DNA of 64,000 bases, from positions 13,530 to 77,529 of the forward strand of contig JBFWSN010000004.1 in assembly GCA_050248355.1 (NCBI GenBank). The letters run 5' to 3'. This stretch comes from Dehalococcoidia bacterium (GTDB lineage: Bacteria; Chloroflexota; Dehalococcoidia; UBA2979). Below are positions 6,943 to 54,163 of this stretch, piece by piece. How positions within the stretch are numbered: the stretch's first letter is position 1; every line of letters starts with the position of its first letter. Under the pieces are notes generated by a model that saw only the letters and a program-made list of their open reading frames with translations, ran no database searches and was not told the origin of the DNA. The position numbers and the translations under genes are program-made.

Positions 6943-8823
6943 ATGTCCGTACGCACCGCGCCTCTCGCCATCGCCATCATCAGCGAACATGCGTCTCCGC
7001 TCGGCCTCGTCGGTGGCGTCGACGCTGGCGGGCAAAACGTCTACGTCGCGCGCATCGCCCGCGCGCTCGCGGCCCGCGGACACCGCGTCGATGTGTTCAC
7101 CCGCCGCGACGCGCCTGACCTGCCGCGCGTCGTCGAGGCCGACGGCTATCGCGTCTTCCACGTCGAGGCCGGTCCGGCCCGCTTCGTCCGCAAGGAGGAC
7201 TTCCTGGACCTGATGCCGGACTTCACCGAGGATGTGGCGCGGCTCGTGACCGAGCACGGCCCCTACGACCTCGTCCACGCGAACTTCTGGCTCTCTGGCG
7301 TGACGGCTGACGAGCTGAAGCGCCGCTTCGGCATCCCGTTCGCGATCACGTTCCACGCCCTGGGAAAAGTGCGGCGGCAGCACCAGGGCGCCGACGACCA
7401 GTTCCCCGACGCTCGCCTCGCGGTCGAGGCGGAACTCGTCCGCGCGGCCGACCGCATCATCGCCGAATGCCCCCAGGACGAGTTCGACCTCGTCACACTG
7501 TACGGCGCCGACCGCCGCCGGCTGATCTTGGTCCCCTGCGGCTACGACCCCGACGAGTGCGCGCCCGTCGACCGCGCCGAGGCGCGCGCGCGCCTCGGTC
7601 TCGATCCGGACGCGCCCATCGTCCTGCAGCTCGGCCGCCTAGTGCCGAGGAAGGGCGTCGATATCGTCGTCCGTGCGACCGCGATCGTCGCCGGCGAGCT
7701 GCCCGATACCCGCCTCGTGGTCGTTGGAGGCGACTCCGACGTCCCCGATCCGGAGGCGACTCCCGAGCTCGGACGCCTCTTCCAGCTTGCCCGCCAGCTC
7801 CGTATCGAGGACCGCTGCCAGTTCGTCGGGCGCCGCCCGCGGTCCGAGATCCGCCACTGGTACTCGGCCGCCGACGTCTTCGCCACGGCGCCCTGGTACG
7901 AGCCGTTCGGCATCACCCCCGTCGAGGCGATGGCATGCGGCACGCCCGTCGTCGGCACCCGTGTCGGCGGCATCCAGTACACCGTCGATCACGAGGGCAC
8001 CGGCCTGCTCGTCCCGCCGCACGACGAGTTCGCGTTCGCTCAGGCCCTGGGCCGCATCCTCGCCGACCGCGGGCTGCGCGACCGTCTCGCCGCGGGCGGG
8101 CGCGAGCGCGTCGCCCGGTTGTTCACGTGGGACCGCGTGGCCCGCGACCTCGAGTCGACGTTCCTCGCCATGGTGGCGCACCGTCCCGGCGCGCCGCCGG
8201 CGCGGCCCGCTGGTTCCCGCGCAGTCGACGCCGGCTTCGATGCCCTGATCGAGACACTGACCAGGGGCCGCCGCGAGCTCGCTCGTGAGGTCAGGGCCGC
8301 GGCGGATGTCGTCACCGCCGGCCTGGCCGAGGGCAGCAAGCTGCTGCTGTGCGGGAACGGAGGCAGCGCCTCGGACGCCGTCCACCTCGCGGGCGAGCTC
8401 GTCGGGCGCTACCGCTCCCCCGACCGCCCGGCCCTCCCTGCCGTCGTCCTGGGCGGCGACCTCGCCTCGCTTACGGCGTGGGCGAACGACGTCTCGTACG
8501 AGTCGGCCTTCGCCCGCCAGGTCGAGGCGTTCGGCCGTGACGGCGACGTGCTCATCGCCTTCAGCACGAGCGGCCGCTCGCCGAGCGTCGTCCAGGCATG
8601 CGAGGCCGCGCGTGCCGCCGGAATGCCGGTCGTCGCCTTTCTGGGCCGCGACGGAGGCCGCGTCGCCGCGCTCGCCGACGCCGCGGTCGTCGTGCGCTCG
8701 CACGACACGCAACGCATCCAGGAGGTGCACGGCCTCCTCCTTCACCTCCTGTGCGACCTCGTCGAGGAAGGTATGGGGTACGGCGTCGACCACGCCGAGG
8801 CTGCCGGGGCTGGCGCAGCATGA
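6943..8823 (+). CDS. gmhA: Fusion protein: N-terminal GT4 glycosyltransferase (MshA/sucrose-phosphate-synthase-like) plus C-terminal D-sedoheptulose-7-phosphate isomerase (GmhA, SIS domain)
   Basis: Residues 1-~420 form a GT4 domain (GGQNVYV…, EPFGITPVEAMACGTPVV). Residues ~430-626 carry the GmhA hallmarks LLCGNGGSASDA, ELVGRY, FSTSGRS and RIQEVH. It is a single uninterrupted ORF. Confidence 0.85.
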   Translation: MSVRTAPLAIAIISEHASPLGLVGGVDAGGQNVYVARIARALAARGHRVDVFTRRDAPDLPRVVEADGYRVFHVEAGPARFVRKEDFLDLMPDFTEDVARLVTEHGPYDLVHANFWLSGVTADELKRRFGIPFAITFHALGKVRRQHQGADDQFPDARLAVEAELVRAADRIIAECPQDEFDLVTLYGADRRRLILVPCGYDPDECAPVDRAEARARLGLDPDAPIVLQLGRLVPRKGVDIVVRATAIVAGELPDTRLVVVGGDSDVPDPEATPELGRLFQLARQLRIEDRCQFVGRRPRSEIRHWYSAADVFATAPWYEPFGITPVEAMACGTPVVGTRVGGIQYTVDHEGTGLLVPPHDEFAFAQALGRILADRGLRDRLAAGGRERVARLFTWDRVARDLESTFLAMVAHRPGAPPARPAGSRAVDAGFDALIETLTRGRRELAREVRAAADVVTAGLAEGSKLLLCGNGGSASDAVHLAGELVGRYRSPDRPALPAVVLGGDLASLTAWANDVSYESAFARQVEAFGRDGDVLIAFSTSGRSPSVVQACEAARAAGMPVVAFLGRDGGRVAALADAAVVVRSHDTQRIQEVHGLLLHLLCDLVEEGMGYGVDHAEAAGAGAA

Positions 8824-9413
8824 CCACGGCCTTCCTCGACAAGGACGGCACTCTTGTGGAGGACGTCCCGTACAACGTCGACCCCGCCCGCATCGAGCTC
8901 GTGGCAGCCGCTCCACGCGCCCTGCGTCTGCTCGGCGACGCAGGCTGCCGCATCGTCGTCGTCACCAACCAGTCTGGCGTCGCCCGCGGGCTCTTCCCCG
9001 AGTCCGCGCTCGAGGCAGTCCGGGAGCGCCTCTCATTGCTGCTCGCCTTACATGGCGCGCGCCTCGATGGCTTCTACTATTGCCCGCATCTCCCGCACGC
9101 CCCCGTCGCGAGGTACGCGCGTGTCTGCCCGTGCCGCAAGCCCGCCGATGGCATGCTCCGCGCCGCCGCCTCCGACCTCTCCATCGACCTGGCGGACGCA
9201 TGGCTCATCGGTGACATCCTCGACGACATCGAGGCCGGCCGCCGCGCAGGTTGCCGCACCGTGCTCGTCGACGCCGGCCACGAGACCGAATGGCACCTGA
9301 GCCCCCGCCGTGTGCCCGAGTTCACCGTCTCCGACCTCGAGCAGGCCGCCGAGACCGTACTCAGCGGGGCCCGCCGCGCTCCTGCAGCTCCCCCGCGGGG
9401 GCCTGCTCGATGA
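8820..9413 (+). CDS. gmhB: D-glycero-D-manno-heptose 1,7-bisphosphate phosphatase (GmhB, HAD family)
   Basis: The HAD motif FLDKDGTL and VVVTNQSGVARG are present, together with the Zn-binding C…CxC region (YYCPHLP…CPCRKP). The ATG at 8820 overlaps the upstream stop (ATGA). Confidence 0.85.
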   Translation: MTTAFLDKDGTLVEDVPYNVDPARIELVAAAPRALRLLGDAGCRIVVVTNQSGVARGLFPESALEAVRERLSLLLALHGARLDGFYYCPHLPHAPVARYARVCPCRKPADGMLRAAASDLSIDLADAWLIGDILDDIEAGRRAGCRTVLVDAGHETEWHLSPRRVPEFTVSDLEQAAETVLSGARRAPAAPPRGPAR

Positions 9414-48374: not shown

Positions 48375-49790
48375 TCACTCGCCGAGCGCATCCCGAAACT
48401 CGTAGTAGCTCAGCACCTTCCGCATCGCCGTCGCCGCCCGCTCGTACGTCGGGTAGGCCGCCACGCCGATCTCACGCAGCCGCGCGTCGAGGTCCGCGAC
48501 CGCCGGCCCGTCCTCGAGCGGCGTCGAGGAGGAGACGAGCGCCGCCACTGGCTTCCCGCTCCGCTCGCGCAGCCGCGCGAGCGCCGCCAGCTGCCCGTCG
48601 AGCCGCTCCTGGTCCGCCGCGTCCCCCGACCACGGCCGCACCTGCATCACCAGTGAGTCGATCGCCGGGTCCTCCGCCAGCACGTCGAGGATCGTGTCCA
48701 TCTCGCTCCGGTTCGACCCCATGTCCACCGGGTTGTTGAAGCTCGCCCCCACGAGGCTGAACCAGCTCGCGAGGCGCTCCCGCGACGCCTCCGACAGCGC
48801 CGGCACCCGCATCCCCGCCCGCGAGAACACGTCCGCCATCGCCACAGACTGCCCGCCCGAGCCGCCCGTCAGCCCCACCCCGTTGCCGCTGAAGCGCGGC
48901 CACAACCGCAGCCCCTTCAGCACGTCCACCATCTCCAGCACCGAGGTCACCGGGATCGCCCCCGTCTGCCGGAACACCGCGTCCCACACCTCGGCCGCCC
49001 CCGCCAGCGACGCCGTGTGTGACGAGGTGGCCCGCCCGCCCGCGTCCGTCAGCCCGCCCTTCCACAGCACCACCGGCTTCCGCCGCGCCGCCTCCCGCAG
49101 CGCCGCGAAGAACCGAGGCCCGTCGCGCAGCCCCTCCACGTACATCGCGATGTACCGCGTCGCCTCGTCCGCCCCGAAGTACTCGAGGTAGTCCGCGTTC
49201 TCGAGGATGACCCCGTTCCCGAAGCTGATCGCCATTCGCACCGGCACCCCTGAGGCGTGCGCCGCCATCGAGAAGTCCACTGCGTGCCCGCCGCTCTGCG
49301 AGAGGAACGTGACGTCCCCCTCGAACCCCGCCGGCTGGTTCTCCATGAACCGCACTCCGAGGCCGGGGTGGTACAGCCCCATGCAGTTCGGCCCGATCAG
49401 CGGCAGCCGCGCCTCGCGCGCCATCTCCGTGATCCGCTGCTGCTGCGCCCGCCCCTCATCGGTGTCCGTCTCCGCGAACCCCGAGGTGAACATCCCCACC
49501 CCGCCCACGCCCTTGGCGATGCAGTCGCGCAGCACCACCGCCGCCGCAACCCGCGGCACCGCCACCAGCGCGTAGTCGATCTCGTCCGGCACATCGAGGA
49601 GGCTCGTGTAGTTCGGCACCCCCAGCTCCTCGATCCCCGGAATCTCCTTCGGATCGATCTGCACCGAATACACCTTGCCCGTGAACGTGCTCAACGACCG
49701 GATCCACCGGTAGTTCCGCACCTTCGCATCCCCGATCACCGCCACCGTCCGAGGATGCAGCATCCGCTCGAGGTCATACCCCACCGCCAT
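48375..49790 (-). CDS. CoA-binding-domain protein of the NDP-forming acyl-CoA synthetase / succinyl-CoA synthetase-alpha family
   Basis: VAVIGDAKV…GPNCMGL… CoA-binding motifs plus the ligase-CoA domain. Confidence 0.75.
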   Translation of the reverse strand: MAVGYDLERMLHPRTVAVIGDAKVRNYRWIRSLSTFTGKVYSVQIDPKEIPGIEELGVPNYTSLLDVPDEIDYALVAVPRVAAAVVLRDCIAKGVGGVGMFTSGFAETDTDEGRAQQQRITEMAREARLPLIGPNCMGLYHPGLGVRFMENQPAGFEGDVTFLSQSGGHAVDFSMAAHASGVPVRMAISFGNGVILENADYLEYFGADEATRYIAMYVEGLRDGPRFFAALREAARRKPVVLWKGGLTDAGGRATSSHTASLAGAAEVWDAVFRQTGAIPVTSVLEMVDVLKGLRLWPRFSGNGVGLTGGSGGQSVAMADVFSRAGMRVPALSEASRERLASWFSLVGASFNNPVDMGSNRSEMDTILDVLAEDPAIDSLVMQVRPWSGDAADQERLDGQLAALARLRERSGKPVAALVSSSTPLEDGPAVADLDARLREIGVAAYPTYERAATAMRKVLSYYEFRDALGE

Positions 49791-49856
49791 CGCACCCCTC
49801 CCTCACGCCTTCGCACGCGGCTCGCGAGCGGATGATACGTCGAGGTATCACGATTG
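49719..49856. repeat. Direct repeat copy A (~140 bp) spanning the 5' end of the CoA-binding gene; its partner is at 50863..51005
   Basis: About 85 bp have only 3 mismatches (CACCTTCGC[AG]TCCCCGATCACCGCCACCGTCCGAGGATGCA…CATCGCACCCCTCC). A second shared block is GCGGATGATACGTC. Confidence 0.7.
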
Positions 49857-49969: not shown

Positions 49970-50851
49970 TCAGCCCCCGGCGGCGACCACCAGCGCCGCC
50001 CGCCGCTCCGCCGCCAGCTGCCGCGAGTCATACACCGAGGTCGCCCGCGTCACCATCCCGTCCGCGTCGAGCTCCAGCGCCGTGATCCCGACGAGCCCGT
50101 CCGCGGCCGTCCACTCGAACCCGCCGCCCGAGGCGCCCCCCACCACGTGCCGCAGCCGGCTGCCCGCGCCGTACGGCGCACCGCCCAGCACCCGCCCGAG
50201 GTATCGCGTTGCCTCCGCGCGCCCGACCAGCTGCGCCCGCAACGCCATGTCCTCGAACAGCACATCCGGATGCAGCAACGCCGCCACCGCCGCCGCGTCC
50301 CCCGCTGCGAGGCCCCGCTGCATCGTCGTCGCGATCTCGACCAGCTCCGCCGCAGCCTGCGAGGGCACCCGCGACTCCTTCAGGTCGCGCGGGAACGACT
50401 CCTCAGGCGTCCGCATCGACTCGTACGCCGCCGTGTCGAAGAAGAAGCTGTCCCAGTAGTCCACCCACCGCACGATCTTCCCGTCGACGAAGTCGACCGC
50501 GCCGAGGATGCGCAGCTCCCCGCCGAACAGCTCCGGCGTGTCCACCATCCGCACCAGCGCGCTCGACTCCCCCGCGAGCACCCCCGTCTGATACGACCGC
50601 GCCGTCGGCGGCCACGTCGGCATGTACTGCGCGAACAACCCCCGCAACGCCTCGAACCCATCGAGGCCCCACCCCAGCGTCGCGTCCGTATACGTCACCA
50701 GCCCCGAGGAGAAGAACCCCATCGTCCCCTCAACATCCGCCGCGCTCTTGACGCGAAAGAACCGCTCAAACGTCTCGATCAGCGGTGATGACGCGGCTTC
50801 CGAGTCCGAAGTCATCGAGCCGTTGCACAATCCCGCGCCGTCGCCCGCCAC
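49970..50851 (-). CDS. Tandem NTF2-like / SnoaL-like domain protein
   Basis: Two repeats of an NTF2-like fold (…IVRWVDYWD… / …LLHPDVLFED…). The start may be the internal MTSDSE at 50815. Confidence 0.5.
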   Translation of the reverse strand: MAGDGAGLCNGSMTSDSEAASSPLIETFERFFRVKSAADVEGTMGFFSSGLVTYTDATLGWGLDGFEALRGLFAQYMPTWPPTARSYQTGVLAGESSALVRMVDTPELFGGELRILGAVDFVDGKIVRWVDYWDSFFFDTAAYESMRTPEESFPRDLKESRVPSQAAAELVEIATTMQRGLAAGDAAAVAALLHPDVLFEDMALRAQLVGRAEATRYLGRVLGGAPYGAGSRLRHVVGGASGGGFEWTAADGLVGITALELDADGMVTRATSVYDSRQLAAERRAALVVAAGG

Positions 50852-50862
50852 GCCGTATCAAC

Positions 50863-51005
50863 CACCTTCGCGTCCCCGATCACCGCCACCGTCCGAGGAT
50901 GCACCATCCACTCGAGGTCATACCCCACCGCCATCGCACCCCTCCATCCCACCCACGACGCCACGCCACCCGCGCGGATGATACGTCTCCGCCCCATCAC
51001 AATCG
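50863..51005. repeat. Direct repeat copy B. It contains a decayed copy of the CoA-binding gene start (MAVGYDLEWMVHPRTVAVIGDAKV) and borders the low-GC island.
   Basis: See copy A. The 62-aa ORF 50812..51000 is this duplicated pseudo-5' end. Confidence 0.7.
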
Positions 51006-51030
51006 CGTGGAGAGGCCGAGGTTCGGATCG

Positions 51031-52773
51031 CTAGTCGAACCGGAAACCAAACAATCCCCCCTCCTCCGTCTCGTCCGTCAGGACGACCGGCAGACGGTAA
51101 TCATCTATGGAGAAGCTCCGGCTGAAATCCGCAATGGGAACGTCGTCGGAGTTCATCGTGACGATGTACTGGAAATCGAATTCCTCCGCACGCGCCGCAG
51201 CCAACTCCAGAGCAGTCGCGACTTGCCGGTCGTCAACACCATCAAACAAGTGTGAGTCATGAATCAAGAACCCCGGCCCTAAGTTGCGTCGAGCGAGGAG
51301 AACTGCGATCATCATATCGAACGTAAAGATTTGCATGTTGTTGATCCCGCGACTCTGACTTCCAGGGGCCTCAACCCGCACCTCGAGACCGTTCGCCGTC
51401 GCGTCGATAGTGAGGTTCCCCGAACGCTCTGAGAGTGCCGAGGAGATTTCTTCGAACGTAACAATTGCCTCGTTCACTACACCGCGACGTTCCTCTATGT
51501 CCTGCTGTTGTCTGAGTTGTAGCCTGGCTCGATCCACGCCTAGCTCGACTCGGTTGTTGTCCAGCTGCTGGACTGACGCTAACCGTTGCCGTAAACTCTC
51601 CGCTTGCGCCTCGAGCCGTGATATCTCCTGCTGCAACATAAGGAATTGGTCAAGAGCGCCACGTGAGCGCAAGATTGACCAGAGTTCTCGACGTCGTCGA
51701 TCCAGCTCGGCCATCCGCATCTCTCTTGCTGCGATGCGTCGGAGTGCTGCCTGCTCCTCGGCCGCGAGATATGATCTCCTGTTCTGAAGAATCGCACTAT
51801 GAAATTCGGCTGCCTCTTCAAAACGACGACGCACACTCCCGGGCAGGGAAATGCCTACTTCACCGTATAGTTCGGTTAGACGATCAACTCCCGGTGCCTG
51901 CTCTCCTTCTGATCCAAGATCGCCCGCGAGATCGGAGAGCAACTGCCTGTCGATTGTGTTTTCATCCGATAGGAAGGCGATTTCGCGTGTGACAAAGGAC
52001 GCCTCTTCCTCCCGTTCCCGGTACTCTGGAAGAACCTCAAAAGCCGCAGCGCGTCCATGTGCTAAGCGCACGCGTTCCTCCGCAAGCGCTAGCTGCGAAC
52101 GCAGTTCAGCAGCACTGCCTAGAGCATCGCCGATTACGCCACGGGAGGTCGCACGGCGAAGAGCGGCGAGTTCCTTCTCCTTGTCCCGGATCGAATCAAG
52201 CTCGGCTGGAATAGTCCAATCGAGACCGAGCAAGAATGCCAGCGCGACCTGCTGGTCACCAGTAGATTGCTGTGAGTTCTGCTTCACTGGGGTGGCGAAT
52301 GCGCCCGATTGAACGCGACGCGCCGCGTACGAAAAGAGCTGCCTAAACGTAGGTGCATGGGGAACCTGGTCATCCGGATTGACTCCGTAGAACTGAGTCC
52401 CTAGCAACGTCCGCCATCGGGGAATTGAGTACCGCTCCTCGGTGTGGCGTTGCGCATCGATGAAAGAATCCCGGCTTACAATGACGGTCCCGAAGTCCGT
52501 CCCAGACCTGCTGGCCACCAGTGACCCGTCGGGCAGGTCGAAGTCAGCGGAGAACGTGTACGGTGCCAGAACGGGATTTCGTAGAAAGTGATCTGTCCGT
52601 GCGTCCGCGCCGAAGAGAAAGTGAATGACCTCGACAAGACTCGATTTTCCAGCGGCGTTGCGGGTTTGCCGATCCGACGACTCCGGGAGACGTTCTGCTG
52701 TAAGGAGGTTCAGCCCTGCATGCAACTCGATGGTCTTGAATGACGAAAGAGAGCTGTAGATTCGACGAATCAT
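51031..52773 (-). CDS. SMC/RecF-like ABC ATPase with a long coiled-coil insert; candidate ATPase of an ABC-three-component (ABC-3C)-type system, DUF2326-like
   Basis: N-terminal ABC head: ELHAGLNLLTAERLPESSDRQTRNAAGKSSLVEVIHFLFG (Walker A). The central ~250 aa are Arg/Glu/Leu/Gln-rich coiled coil. The C-terminal head has GSQSRGINNMQIF (signature-like) and GFLIHDSHLFDGVDDRQV (Walker B / D-loop). GC is lower than the flanks. Confidence 0.65.
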   Translation of the reverse strand: MIRRIYSSLSSFKTIELHAGLNLLTAERLPESSDRQTRNAAGKSSLVEVIHFLFGADARTDHFLRNPVLAPYTFSADFDLPDGSLVASRSGTDFGTVIVSRDSFIDAQRHTEERYSIPRWRTLLGTQFYGVNPDDQVPHAPTFRQLFSYAARRVQSGAFATPVKQNSQQSTGDQQVALAFLLGLDWTIPAELDSIRDKEKELAALRRATSRGVIGDALGSAAELRSQLALAEERVRLAHGRAAAFEVLPEYREREEEASFVTREIAFLSDENTIDRQLLSDLAGDLGSEGEQAPGVDRLTELYGEVGISLPGSVRRRFEEAAEFHSAILQNRRSYLAAEEQAALRRIAAREMRMAELDRRRRELWSILRSRGALDQFLMLQQEISRLEAQAESLRQRLASVQQLDNNRVELGVDRARLQLRQQQDIEERRGVVNEAIVTFEEISSALSERSGNLTIDATANGLEVRVEAPGSQSRGINNMQIFTFDMMIAVLLARRNLGPGFLIHDSHLFDGVDDRQVATALELAAARAEEFDFQYIVTMNSDDVPIADFSRSFSIDDYRLPVVLTDETEEGGLFGFRFD

Positions 52774-53042
52774 GGTGACGTACGTGCCAACAGTCCGTCT
52801 GTCAGGATGACGGAGCCGATGATAAAGAGGAAGTCGAGGGCCAGGATAAACCAGTCATAACTGATTCGCCGGGTGGCATCTTCCCCCATTCGGAGACGGG
52901 TGTCCTCCCACAACCGAGAAACGGTCTTAGGAACGTCAAGGTGGGACAGCAGTTCTCCACCCACGAAGATCAGCGATCGATTCGCCGGGAGATGTTTAGT
53001 TGGCAGCAACACCGCTTGCCGCCTCGGACTCGAATATGTCAC
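52770..53042 (-). CDS. Small ORF (90 aa from a GTG start, or shorter) with a C-terminal hydrophobic helix; candidate middle component. Translationally coupled to the ATPase.
   Basis: Its TGA overlaps the ATPase ATG (ATGA at 52770-52773). Its 5' end overlaps the 3' end of the upstream 309-aa gene. No motif match. Confidence 0.3.
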   Translation of the reverse strand: MTYSSPRRQAVLLPTKHLPANRSLIFVGGELLSHLDVPKTVSRLWEDTRLRMGEDATRRISYDWFILALDFLFIIGSVILTDGLLARTSP

Positions 53043-53925
53043 ACCGTTCGAACAGGTAGGCCACGATGGCTAGCGCGGCGTGTAGGTCGGCGGGTTTTGC
53101 CGAGCTTCCCCCAGCAAATTCGACCAGGGATCCAAAAATACTGTCAGGGCTTTGGCGTTCACTGCGGAGCGCGCGATATTGGTCTGTGAATGAGCGCGCG
53201 ACATCGTCGCCGTAGGTGGGATCGGCGACGCGGCCGAGGTAGTGAGCGACGACATCGGACTTCTGCATCCCCATTCGAAGGAATTCGCTCACCGCGTCGG
53301 AAAGCTGGTTAATGGCGATCTTGTCCGCTGGCGGCGGTCGCAGCTGACTGGCGACGGTGCCCGCACTCGAACGCAATACCTCGAGGAGCGGCGCGATTTC
53401 ACTGGCGGAAACGGTACGCATCCCCGACGGCGTCGGCGGCAGCCCAAAGATCGCCTCTAGATCGCCCGCAGACAACTCCAGAGTAACGGTTAGCAGCTCC
53501 TCAAAGCCCCAGGACCGGACGAGTAGCGGCGGATTCTGCTTCTCGAGTCGGAGGAGCCGGTCGACGACTTGATACGATAAGCCAGTGCGGTCGTTGTGCA
53601 CAAAAACCCAAGTGTCGAAGTACTCGCTCCAGTAGGGCAAGCACCCGGCGAAGTCTTTATTGATCTTCCCCACCGCGGCGGCGGCACGCATCTCCCGGGG
53701 AGCATACACTTGGAAGAGGCGACGTTCGGATCGCAAATACCCGTCGCTCTTGCGGTCGCCGATGGCTCCCCAGGGGCGCATGCGGATGAAGTCCTCCCGG
53801 TGGCGTCGCGACATCAGATCCGCGAAGAGATCTTGAAAGGCCTCGCCGTGTCTTCGGGCGAAAGCGACCTCGAGTTTCATTTCGTACCACGACCGCGTTG
53901 GCTCGGGGTGTTGCGGACTAGCCAT
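52996..53925 (-). CDS. Hypothetical 309-aa protein, first gene of the island operon (candidate effector/partner component)
   Basis: MASPQHPEPTRSWYEMKLEVAFARRHGEAFQDLFADLM…PWGAIGDRKSDGYL… No confident domain call. It is co-oriented and overlapping with the next two genes. Confidence 0.5.
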   Translation of the reverse strand: MASPQHPEPTRSWYEMKLEVAFARRHGEAFQDLFADLMSRRHREDFIRMRPWGAIGDRKSDGYLRSERRLFQVYAPREMRAAAAVGKINKDFAGCLPYWSEYFDTWVFVHNDRTGLSYQVVDRLLRLEKQNPPLLVRSWGFEELLTVTLELSAGDLEAIFGLPPTPSGMRTVSASEIAPLLEVLRSSAGTVASQLRPPPADKIAINQLSDAVSEFLRMGMQKSDVVAHYLGRVADPTYGDDVARSFTDQYRALRSERQSPDSIFGSLVEFAGGSSAKPADLHAALAIVAYLFERCDIFESEAASGVAAN

Positions 53926-54088
53926 ATCTCGCCGATCAATCGCGGAGACAGCCTAACAGAATACAATTGGAGTAGGTAGGCACCAATCGGCTCGGAGGTC
54001 GGGCGTTCGGCACATCGGGCGTTGGCGAGCAGTGCGCAGCGTGAGGCCACCCGCGCGCGCTATGCAGGCCGCTGAGGGTGTAAGGGGT

Positions 54089-54163
54089 TGGTAGCAGGGG
54101 GCGGATTTGAACCGCCGACCAAGGGCTTATGAGTCCCCTGCTCTACCACTGAGCTACCCTGCC
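54089..54163 (-). tRNA. tRNA-Met (anticodon CAT; could alternatively be tRNA-Ile2/lysidine type), CCA encoded
   Basis: Reverse complement: GGCAGGGTAGCTCAGTGGTAGAGCAGGGGACTCATAAGCCCTTGGTCGGCGGTTCAAATCCGCCCCCTGCTACCA. The acceptor, D, anticodon (loop CTCATAA) and T (GGCGG/TTCAAAT/CCGCC) arms fold correctly. Confidence 0.85.

Follow-up and report, generated by a model that had tools for sequence, protein, structure and literature searches.

We analysed a 64,000-nucleotide stretch of DNA from an uncultured Dehalococcoidia bacterium (assembly GCA_050248355.1, contig JBFWSN010000004.1, positions 13,530 to 77,529 of the forward strand; hereafter the window, whose own numbering is used throughout). 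Within this genome of roughly 70% GC, a 3.3 kb island of lower GC content lies against the 3′ end of a tRNA-Met gene and encodes a cassette of three genes, namely an effector, a small middle component and an ATP-binding cassette (ABC) ATPase. Very probably, this region is a horizontally acquired ABC-three component (ABC-3C) conflict system, a member of the Lamassu superfamily, installed in an exchangeable tRNA-Met hotspot that has no integrase and acting by a mechanism analogous to that of Lamassu. Systems combining the CTD10, MC6 and DUF2326 families are a known, computationally defined kind already annotated by NCBI.

A coupled three-gene cassette of the CTD10/MC6/DUF2326 type

The cassette consists of three open reading frames (ORFs) on the minus strand, at 52996-53925 (309 amino acids, aa), 52770-53042 (90 aa when read from a GTG) and 51031-52773 (580 aa). 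An earlier note on this DNA had described a three-gene minus-strand operon with ORFs of these sizes and with an ATGA overlap between the stop codon of the small ORF and the start codon of the ATPase gene, and we found both to be present. If the small gene starts at the GTG at 53012, as argued below, it overlaps the effector gene by 17 nt. All three genes of the cassette are translationally coupled.

Each of the three products matched a curated Pfam family when judged against Pfam's own gathering thresholds: CTD10 (PF20275) in residues 176-299 of the effector (67.7 bits for a cut-off of 28.1; E = 2e-18), MC6 (PF20293) in the small protein (66.5 bits for a cut-off of 27.2) and DUF2326 at the C-terminus of the ATPase (133.5 bits for a cut-off of 28.7; E = 5.5e-39). 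The PADLOC candidate model PDC-M68B matched the ATPase end to end (positions 1-581 of 581; E = 5.8e-151), and PDC-M68A matched the effector tail only (profile positions 141-252 of 253; E = 9.5e-24). The locus thus combines what characterizes an ABC-3C system: an effector ending in CTD10 and carrying a variable N-terminal domain, an MC6 protein encoded between effector and ATPase, and a coiled-coil ABC ATPase. The ABC-3C interpretation put forward in the earlier note is therefore borne out, each protein scoring above the curated threshold and the components following one another as they do in homologues.

Full-length homologues were abundant for the effector (more than 300, with 42-49% identity) and for the ATPase (n = 444, 42-50% identity); they came from Chloroflexota, Myxococcota, Planctomycetota, Pseudomonadota and archaea, and some of them bear names such as "ABC-three component system protein", "YydD (DUF2326 family)" or "middle component 6" in their sources. 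The order effector-MC6-ATPase is kept on the chromosomes of a member of the Nannocystaceae and of Myxococcus virescens, on PLSDB plasmids and on a conjugative IncF plasmid of Enterobacter kobei. We detected the ATPase on 50 plasmids of PLSDB, of which 28 are conjugative or mobilizable; IMG/VR had just 8 contigs with it, and none of 50,697 phage records (INPHARED) contained it. The E. kobei plasmid, pSG.H2a_1 (NZ_CP104725.1, 27271-30157; IncFIB/IncFII, conjugative), encodes a complete orthologous system, its effector sharing 41% identity along the full length, in the neighbourhood of RelB/DinJ, JAB-domain, RES NAD+ phosphorylase and integrative and conjugative element (ICE) genes. A decayed copy was seen in Reticulibacter mediterranei (BNJK01000001.1, 8001-9058), where an intact effector gene is followed by a 48-aa stub and there is no ATPase gene.

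A foreign island in a variable tRNA-Met hotspot

The earlier note had judged the region by eye to be poorer in GC than the rest of the window, and measurement agreed. GC content was 0.58-0.59 across 50816-54088 and 0.70 in the rest of the window; for 50986-54088 it was 0.584 against 0.699 in the remainder (z = -6.2 relative to equal-sized windows). The 545 equal-sized windows outside the island, which served as background, spanned 0.646-0.731, none falling below this range. The tetranucleotide distance between the island and the remaining window was 0.455, the maximum for any other window being 0.26, and GC content at third codon positions (GC3) was 0.60-0.71 in the three cassette genes versus 0.91-0.95 in five flanking genes. 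The shift in composition is real and far beyond chance: the island is distinct from its flanks, not uniform with them.

The tRNA-Met gene next to which the cassette had been placed was also confirmed. It lies at 54089-54163 on the minus strand (anticodon CAT, CCA encoded; predicted by ARAGORN and matched by the Rfam tRNA model with 67.6 bits), is the sole tRNA gene found, and has its 3′ end facing the cassette, so that this end forms the island boundary. Between it and the effector start codon is a 163-nt non-coding leader on the minus strand (53926-54088) without any ORF, which presumably holds the promoter. Apart from the tRNA-Met, terminator and Rfam scans found nothing.

To look at the same site in relatives, we scanned species-representative genomes with the neighbouring 471-aa CoA-ligase-like protein. 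Two close relatives, L004 (JAWKPL010000001.1) and L005 (JAIBBD010000011.1), were found, for which identity in the adjoining flanks was 96-97% for protein and 86-93% for DNA. Both are homologous to the window across the CoA-ligase-like and SnoaL-like genes as far as the start codon of the latter (window 50815); beyond it homology is lost, to return precisely where the tRNA-Met has its 3′ end (window 54089/54088), and the same tRNA stands at the junction. Between these points, the two relatives carry other genes. L004 has 1.7 kb of 52-60% GC (7287-8968) encoding a 389-aa protein of the phage-associated family phrog_27609, of unknown function (1.3e-61). L005 has 2.1 kb (519-2651) with a 235-aa ORF and, overlapping it, a gene for a helix-turn-helix (HTH) and Peptidase_M78 protein that matches the RosmerTA antitoxin RmrA (PADLOC, 1.2e-57); judging from this match, the L005 cargo appears to be a different, RosmerTA-like defence-type pair. 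Since relatives hold different cargo at an identical junction, the site 3′ of the tRNA-Met is a variable hotspot and not a core locus, and the simplest inference is that cargo is exchanged by homologous recombination through the conserved flanks. In the L004 389-aa protein, the string RDMRNHVSAAH was noticed by eye and might be a HEPN-like Rx4-6H motif.

The position where homology breaks, 50815/50816 at the start of the SnoaL-like gene, also corrects the far edge of the island, which had been set at 51006. On this basis, the variable region extends over 50816-54088, from the start of the SnoaL-like gene to the tRNA-Met 3′ end, with homology breaks and composition in support, and includes the second copy (B, 50863-50985) of a 123-nt direct repeat. 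Copy A (49719-49841) is the start and upstream region of the CoA-ligase-like gene, and copy B is a host-like duplicate of this 5′ end and upstream sequence, the two being 93% identical over the first 91 nt and 87% over 126 nt. Neither L004 nor L005 has a second copy of the repeat, and copy B may be a recombination footprint. It lies between the ATPase stop codon and the SnoaL-like gene and leaves a 62-aa ORF beginning MAVGYDLEWMVHPRTVAVIGDAKV.

The locus resembles other tRNA-linked islands and defence hotspots in starting at a tRNA 3′ end, in its atypical composition and in the differing defence-type cargo of relatives. However, it differs from them in having neither an integrase nor a duplicate of the tRNA 3′ end, its far end being marked instead by the copy of a nearby host gene start. 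In fact, no integrase ORF occurs in the island, which encodes only the three genes of the cassette, and no copy of the tRNA 3′ end (12-30 nt, up to 20% mismatch) was found on either strand of 50700-54088. A classical integrase-mediated tRNA island, with an integrase and a duplicated tRNA 3′ segment at its distal border, was therefore rejected.

The ATPase sequence recurs exactly in another Dehalococcoidia metagenome-assembled genome (MAG), GCA_050181055.1, whose contig matches 21.6 kb of the window with 99.96% identity, and in two independent short Logan contigs (SRR27751815 and SRR27751816) made up of the island alone. The latter cover window positions 50720/50916-54118 with 100% identity and both stop 30 nt inside the tRNA gene. 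Such ends fit a branch of the k-mer graph, caused either by strain heterogeneity at the hotspot or by sharing of the conserved tRNA sequence. Searching metagenomes with the SnoaL-like protein for an empty site or further variants gave only relatives of at most 62% identity without the tRNA nearby, and this tRNA was likewise missing from more distant genomic relatives of the CoA-ligase-like gene.

An effector with a restriction endonuclease-like head

The effector gene, which encodes the LmuA-like component 1 of the ABC-3C system, occupies 52996-53925 on the minus strand. Because residues 8-15 of its product line up with a stretch that homologues conserve, the ATG at 53925 (309 aa) is preferred to the start of the 294-aa protein called by NCBI. 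The public annotation of the near-identical MAG has shorter products for two of the genes, an effector of 294 aa and an MC6 of 64 aa (window 53880-53925 and 52964-53012, respectively). The earlier note had recognized nothing in the 309-aa protein, a statement that has to be abandoned: it has the Pfam CTD10 domain at residues 176-299 and a restriction endonuclease (REase) fold in its head.

The tail (53029-53400, minus strand) is all-helical, as indicated by Pfam, by PDC-M68A and by an AlphaFold2 (AF2) model in which it forms a helical bundle, and CTD10 was matched by all 30 aligned effector homologues. It is presumed to be a docking and oligomerisation module. The head (residues 8-165; 53431-53904, minus strand) was much less accessible to sequence searches. 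No Pfam, PADLOC or NCBIfam model matched residues 1-165, even at permissive thresholds and with 30 homologues included; the head had no sequence-level match to Pfam Mrr_cat and other REase models; and searching solved structures by sequence with the effector family profile retrieved chance matches only. By structure, the head has the alpha-beta-beta-beta-alpha-beta core fold of the PD-(D/E)xK nuclease superfamily, and its neighbours (similarity scores in brackets) were the FokI cleavage domain (10.2), the nickase N.BspD6I (9.8) and the R.BspD6I small subunit (9.6), followed by EcoT38I (9.2), LlaBIII (9.1), AF1548 (9.1), Avs4 (7.7) and LmuA (7.0). Foldseek was weakly in agreement.

Conservation singles out a compact set of residues in the head. 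Among 149 cluster representatives, D57, D61, G62, P76, K87 and D91 are invariant and K59, N111, Y74 and H110 are retained in 95-99%, giving the signature G-D-x-K-x-D-G ... Y-x-P ... K-x3-D ... H-N; D57, K59, D61, K87 and D91 are each kept in 148-149 of the 149. D61 precedes strand 2, and the invariant K87 and D91 are on the helix that follows strand 3. A lysine and an acid on that helix form the arrangement known from the Cfr10I/NgoMIV type. We read the head as an REase fold whose active site is rearranged and for which nuclease catalysis is plausible. The canonical D...(D/E)xK motif on strands 2 and 3 was rejected, as strand 3 bears Q72-V-Y74. Likewise, an hhalign comparison with the FokI cleavage domain was not significant (E = 0.12), and the placement of D61 on FokI D450 (RKSDG versus RKPDG) is a hint only.

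Like FokI/Mrr-type PD-(D/E)xK domains, the head is modular and found at the N-terminus of NACHT and NB-ARC proteins, although it departs from them in having Q-x-Y instead of D-x-K on strand 3, with K87 and D91 on the following helix. FokI must dimerise to cut both strands, and a FokI-like head would for this reason fit activation by oligomerisation.

The head domain in other proteins

A profile of the head domain retrieved 1,695 cluster representatives among 1.84 billion proteins, most of them of ~300 aa, that is, of effector architecture. However, long proteins (450-1,655 aa, with the head domain at the N-terminus) make up 24 of the top 149 representatives. Ten of these were scanned with Pfam: five have NACHT or NB-ARC, two of which also have TPR or HEAT, and most of the others have TPR-type repeats. 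By their domain composition, these proteins are STAND/NLR-like, such fusion to STAND proteins being typical of portable immune effector domains. The NACHT/NB-ARC STAND proteins among those scanned are 690-1,040 aa long. PADLOC matches of the ten were marginal, with no confident family, so they could represent NLR/Avs-like immune proteins that have not been described before.

The head domain also occurs, as a distant copy with an hhalign probability of 98.5%, in gp20, a 347-aa hypothetical protein of the Klebsiella phage ST147-VIM1phi7.1 (NC_049451.1, 12668-13711). Its gene is in moron position of a P2-like prophage, between virion-morphogenesis and baseplate genes, and recurs in six further Klebsiella phage records; gp20 has the motif GDRGNDGW where the head domain has GDRKxDGY.

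We tentatively raise a broader reading, which we consider doubtful: the head would be an undescribed, rearranged branch of the REase fold serving as a portable execution domain in at least three immune settings, namely ABC-3C CTD10 effectors, NACHT/NB-ARC STAND proteins and a stand-alone P2-like prophage protein, its substrate and chemistry perhaps not being generic double-stranded DNA cleavage and, separately, the tRNA-Met flank being a hotspot where defence genes are swapped without an integrase.

The middle component and the ATPase

The middle gene encodes MC6, a small winged-helix protein in an LmuC-like position. An ORF does exist here as the earlier note had it, read as 90 aa from 53042, but the product more likely has 80 aa and starts at the GTG at 53012 (52770-53012, minus strand). 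This start is favoured by a GAGG 9 nt upstream, by the length of homologues (75-94 aa) and by the Pfam match, which begins at residue 3 of the 80-aa form. The C-terminal hydrophobic helix attributed to this protein is indeed hydrophobic, but it would be a core helix of the winged-helix fold and not a membrane helix: the segment WFILALDFLF is the invariant third helix of the MC6 winged helix, and the next segment carries D, E or R in homologues. A membrane anchor, for which we considered the Kyte-Doolittle maximum of 2.07 over 19 residues, was ruled out by the AF2 winged-helix model together with these charged residues, and MC6 is predicted to be a soluble winged helix. Models of short LmuC proteins match HTH-type factors and contact DNA (10.1101/2025.04.02.646746), and the winged helix of MC6 agrees with this HTH-like, DNA-contacting character.

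The ATPase gene (51031-52773, minus strand) encodes a 580-aa LmuB-like protein of the DUF2326/YydD clade, as assigned by Pfam DUF2326 and PDC-M68B. The motifs named in the earlier note could all be located in the translation: a Walker A (QTRNAAGKSS; 52639-52668, minus strand), with N39, A41, G42, K43 and S45 invariant in 25 homologues; a Walker B and D-loop (FLIHDSHLFDGVD; 51232-51270, minus strand) of the form hhhhDS without a catalytic Glu, invariant in the same number of homologues; and a middle part rich in R/E/A/L/Q (61% of residues 190-440) corresponding to the coiled-coil insert. The protein contains no cysteine and no CxxC, so it has no zinc hook. Short Lamassu LmuB proteins have ~600 aa and a Walker B of the form hhhhD[Q/S/T/E] (10.1101/2025.04.02.646746); the size class of the Dehalococcoidia ATPase and its Walker B FLIHDS show both hallmarks.

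As a side observation, the ATPase coiled coil (residues 279-404; window 51562-51939) has a Pfam CTD10 match of 37 bits, and all homologues carry the same precomputed annotation. This match could reflect helical composition or a very distant real homology.

Comparison with Lamassu and proposed mechanism

A computational study by Krishnan, Burroughs, Iyer and Aravind (2020, NAR) reportedly defined the ABC-3C systems. The cassette has the same three proteins in the same order as their CTD10/MC6/DUF2326 subtype and no architectural difference from it, except that its N-terminal effector head has no curated model. It likewise resembles PDC-M68, a candidate system of PADLOC that is not validated, in that the ATPase matches PDC-M68B over its full length and the effector tail matches PDC-M68A. 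However, the PDC-M68A models align with the effector through their C-terminal half only, so its head differs from theirs.

Reviews place ABC-3C inside the Lamassu superfamily (PMC10586767), whose type II/DdmABC/LmuACB systems are validated and structurally solved. As in these, the effector combines a variable head with a helical C-terminal domain, the small middle protein is HTH-like and the SMC-like ATPase of ~600 aa has, as in short Lamassu LmuB, a Walker B hhhhD[S] and no zinc hook. The differences concern the families involved: the effector has a FokI-like REase head and not Cap4/DUF4297, its tail is CTD10 and not CTD7 or CTD12, and the middle component is MC6 and not MC3.

In Lamassu, LmuA is sequestered in an LmuA1B2C1 complex that senses DNA ends, and an LmuA tetramer forms the active site (10.1101/2025.04.02.646746; 10.1101/2025.03.14.643221). 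By analogy with the solved LmuACB complexes (see also the review PMC10586767), we infer a comparable mechanism for the parts list, gene coupling, three folds, portable head and foreign origin described above. A dimer of the ATPase, together with the winged-helix MC6, would bind the CTD10 tail of the effector and hold its nuclease head monomeric and inactive. Once the complex encounters foreign DNA of an abnormal kind, for instance DNA ends or intermediates of phage or plasmid replication, an ATP-dependent rearrangement would set the effector free. The effector might then oligomerise through CTD10, so that FokI-like heads would pair into a DNA-cleaving active site, and cleavage of invader and host DNA would lead to abortive infection or plasmid loss.

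Several findings weigh against this interpretation. The best LmuB model gave only a weak match to the ATPase (E = 4.8e-07, 27.3 bits, residues 13-411), other LmuB models had E ≥ 0.007, and no PADLOC LmuA or LmuC model matched the effector or the middle protein. Searched against solved structures, alone and as a family profile, the ATPase retrieved no solved LmuB and nothing better than Rad50 (E = 0.17). Similarity to LmuA, LmuB and LmuC being marginal or absent, the transfer of the Lamassu mechanism is an analogy across a large distance. In the head, the position of the (D/E)xK on strand 3 is not only occupied by Q72-V-Y74, but Q72 is itself A or G in 20 of the 149 representatives (~13%). An hhalign comparison between the effector CTD10 and the ATPase family (E = 0.39) did not reproduce the Pfam CTD10 hit in the ATPase and leaves homotypic CTD10-CTD10 docking unsupported. 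No promoter was recognized for the cassette, a scan for the sigma-70 consensus, which does not cover Chloroflexota-specific promoters, having given no match, and a literature search found no CTD10, MC6, DUF2326 or PDC-M68 system that has been tested experimentally or structurally solved.

Alternative explanations

The support for a role of the cassette in biological conflict, through phage or plasmid restriction and abortive infection, is contextual and comes from its foreign composition, from the RosmerTA pair held by the same hotspot in a relative and from carriage of homologues on plasmids. This last point raises the question of the opponent. The natural role might be competition with plasmids or other elements and not anti-phage defence, the system removing or excluding rival plasmids or helping to maintain the element that carries it. 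Presence of the ATPase on plasmids, more than half of them conjugative or mobilizable and one of them an IncF with RelB/DinJ, JAB, RES and ICE neighbours, speaks for this view, as do its absence from the phage records and its rarity in IMG/VR. Nevertheless, we regard it as somewhat unlikely: an anti-plasmid role is compatible with anti-phage function, validated Lamassu systems doing both, and the cassette is chromosomal here, at a site occupied in a relative by a RosmerTA-type phage-defence pair. A second question concerns the output. If the REase-fold head were an RNA or tRNA nuclease, a nickase or a non-catalytic DNA-binding module, and not a DNA-cutting toxin, the outcome would differ from that of Lamassu-Cap4. 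Such an activity would be in keeping with the Q-x-Y where (D/E)xK is normal, with the hhalign E-value of 0.12 against FokI, with a nickase, N.BspD6I, among the top structural neighbours and with the lack of a curated model covering the domain. However, the near-complete retention of five charged residues (D57, K59, D61, K87 and D91), plus H110 and N111, argues for catalysis, and we find this alternative decidedly unlikely.

It is quite improbable that the cassette is an inert passenger, recently acquired and not expressed or not functional in its host. Its foreign codon usage (GC3 of 0.60-0.71 versus 0.93 in flanking genes), the lack of a recognizable promoter or terminator and the decayed Reticulibacter copy, with its effector and 48-aa stub but no ATPase, would agree with such a fate, but none of the three ORFs is disrupted or has lost a residue that is invariant in its family, the overlaps that couple the genes persist and the sequence is identical in two further metagenome assemblies. 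The last alternative, in which the ATPase would be a housekeeping DNA repair protein of the RecF, RecN, SbcC or SMC kind and the locus a core chromosome-maintenance operon, is extremely improbable and already refuted. The ATPase has the general Rad50/SMC architecture and Rad50 is the best match of its family profile in the PDB, with the non-significant E-value given above. However, it matched no RecF, RecN, SbcC or SMC equivalog of NCBIfam, so that it does not group with these housekeeping proteins as the earlier note had allowed for, and the model that fits it over its full length is that of a defence candidate. In addition, the composition of the cassette is foreign, and relatives with flanks ~92% identical have unrelated genes in its place.

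Implications

The region provides an intact example of a CTD10/MC6/DUF2326 ABC-3C system in an uncultured, high-GC lineage of Dehalococcoidia. To what was known of this subtype, our analysis adds a fold assignment for the head of the effector together with its connection to STAND proteins, the recognition of MC6 as a winged helix and the integrase-less tRNA-Met defence hotspot. An effector head that formerly had no curated model can now be read as an REase fold common to NLR-like STAND proteins. The orthologue on the Enterobacter IncF plasmid, with its 41%-identical effector, makes the subtype directly testable and is a convenient experimental surrogate. Three related genomes hold three different foreign cargoes at one small tRNA-adjacent spot, and such spots can guide the search for further defence genes in uncultured Chloroflexota.

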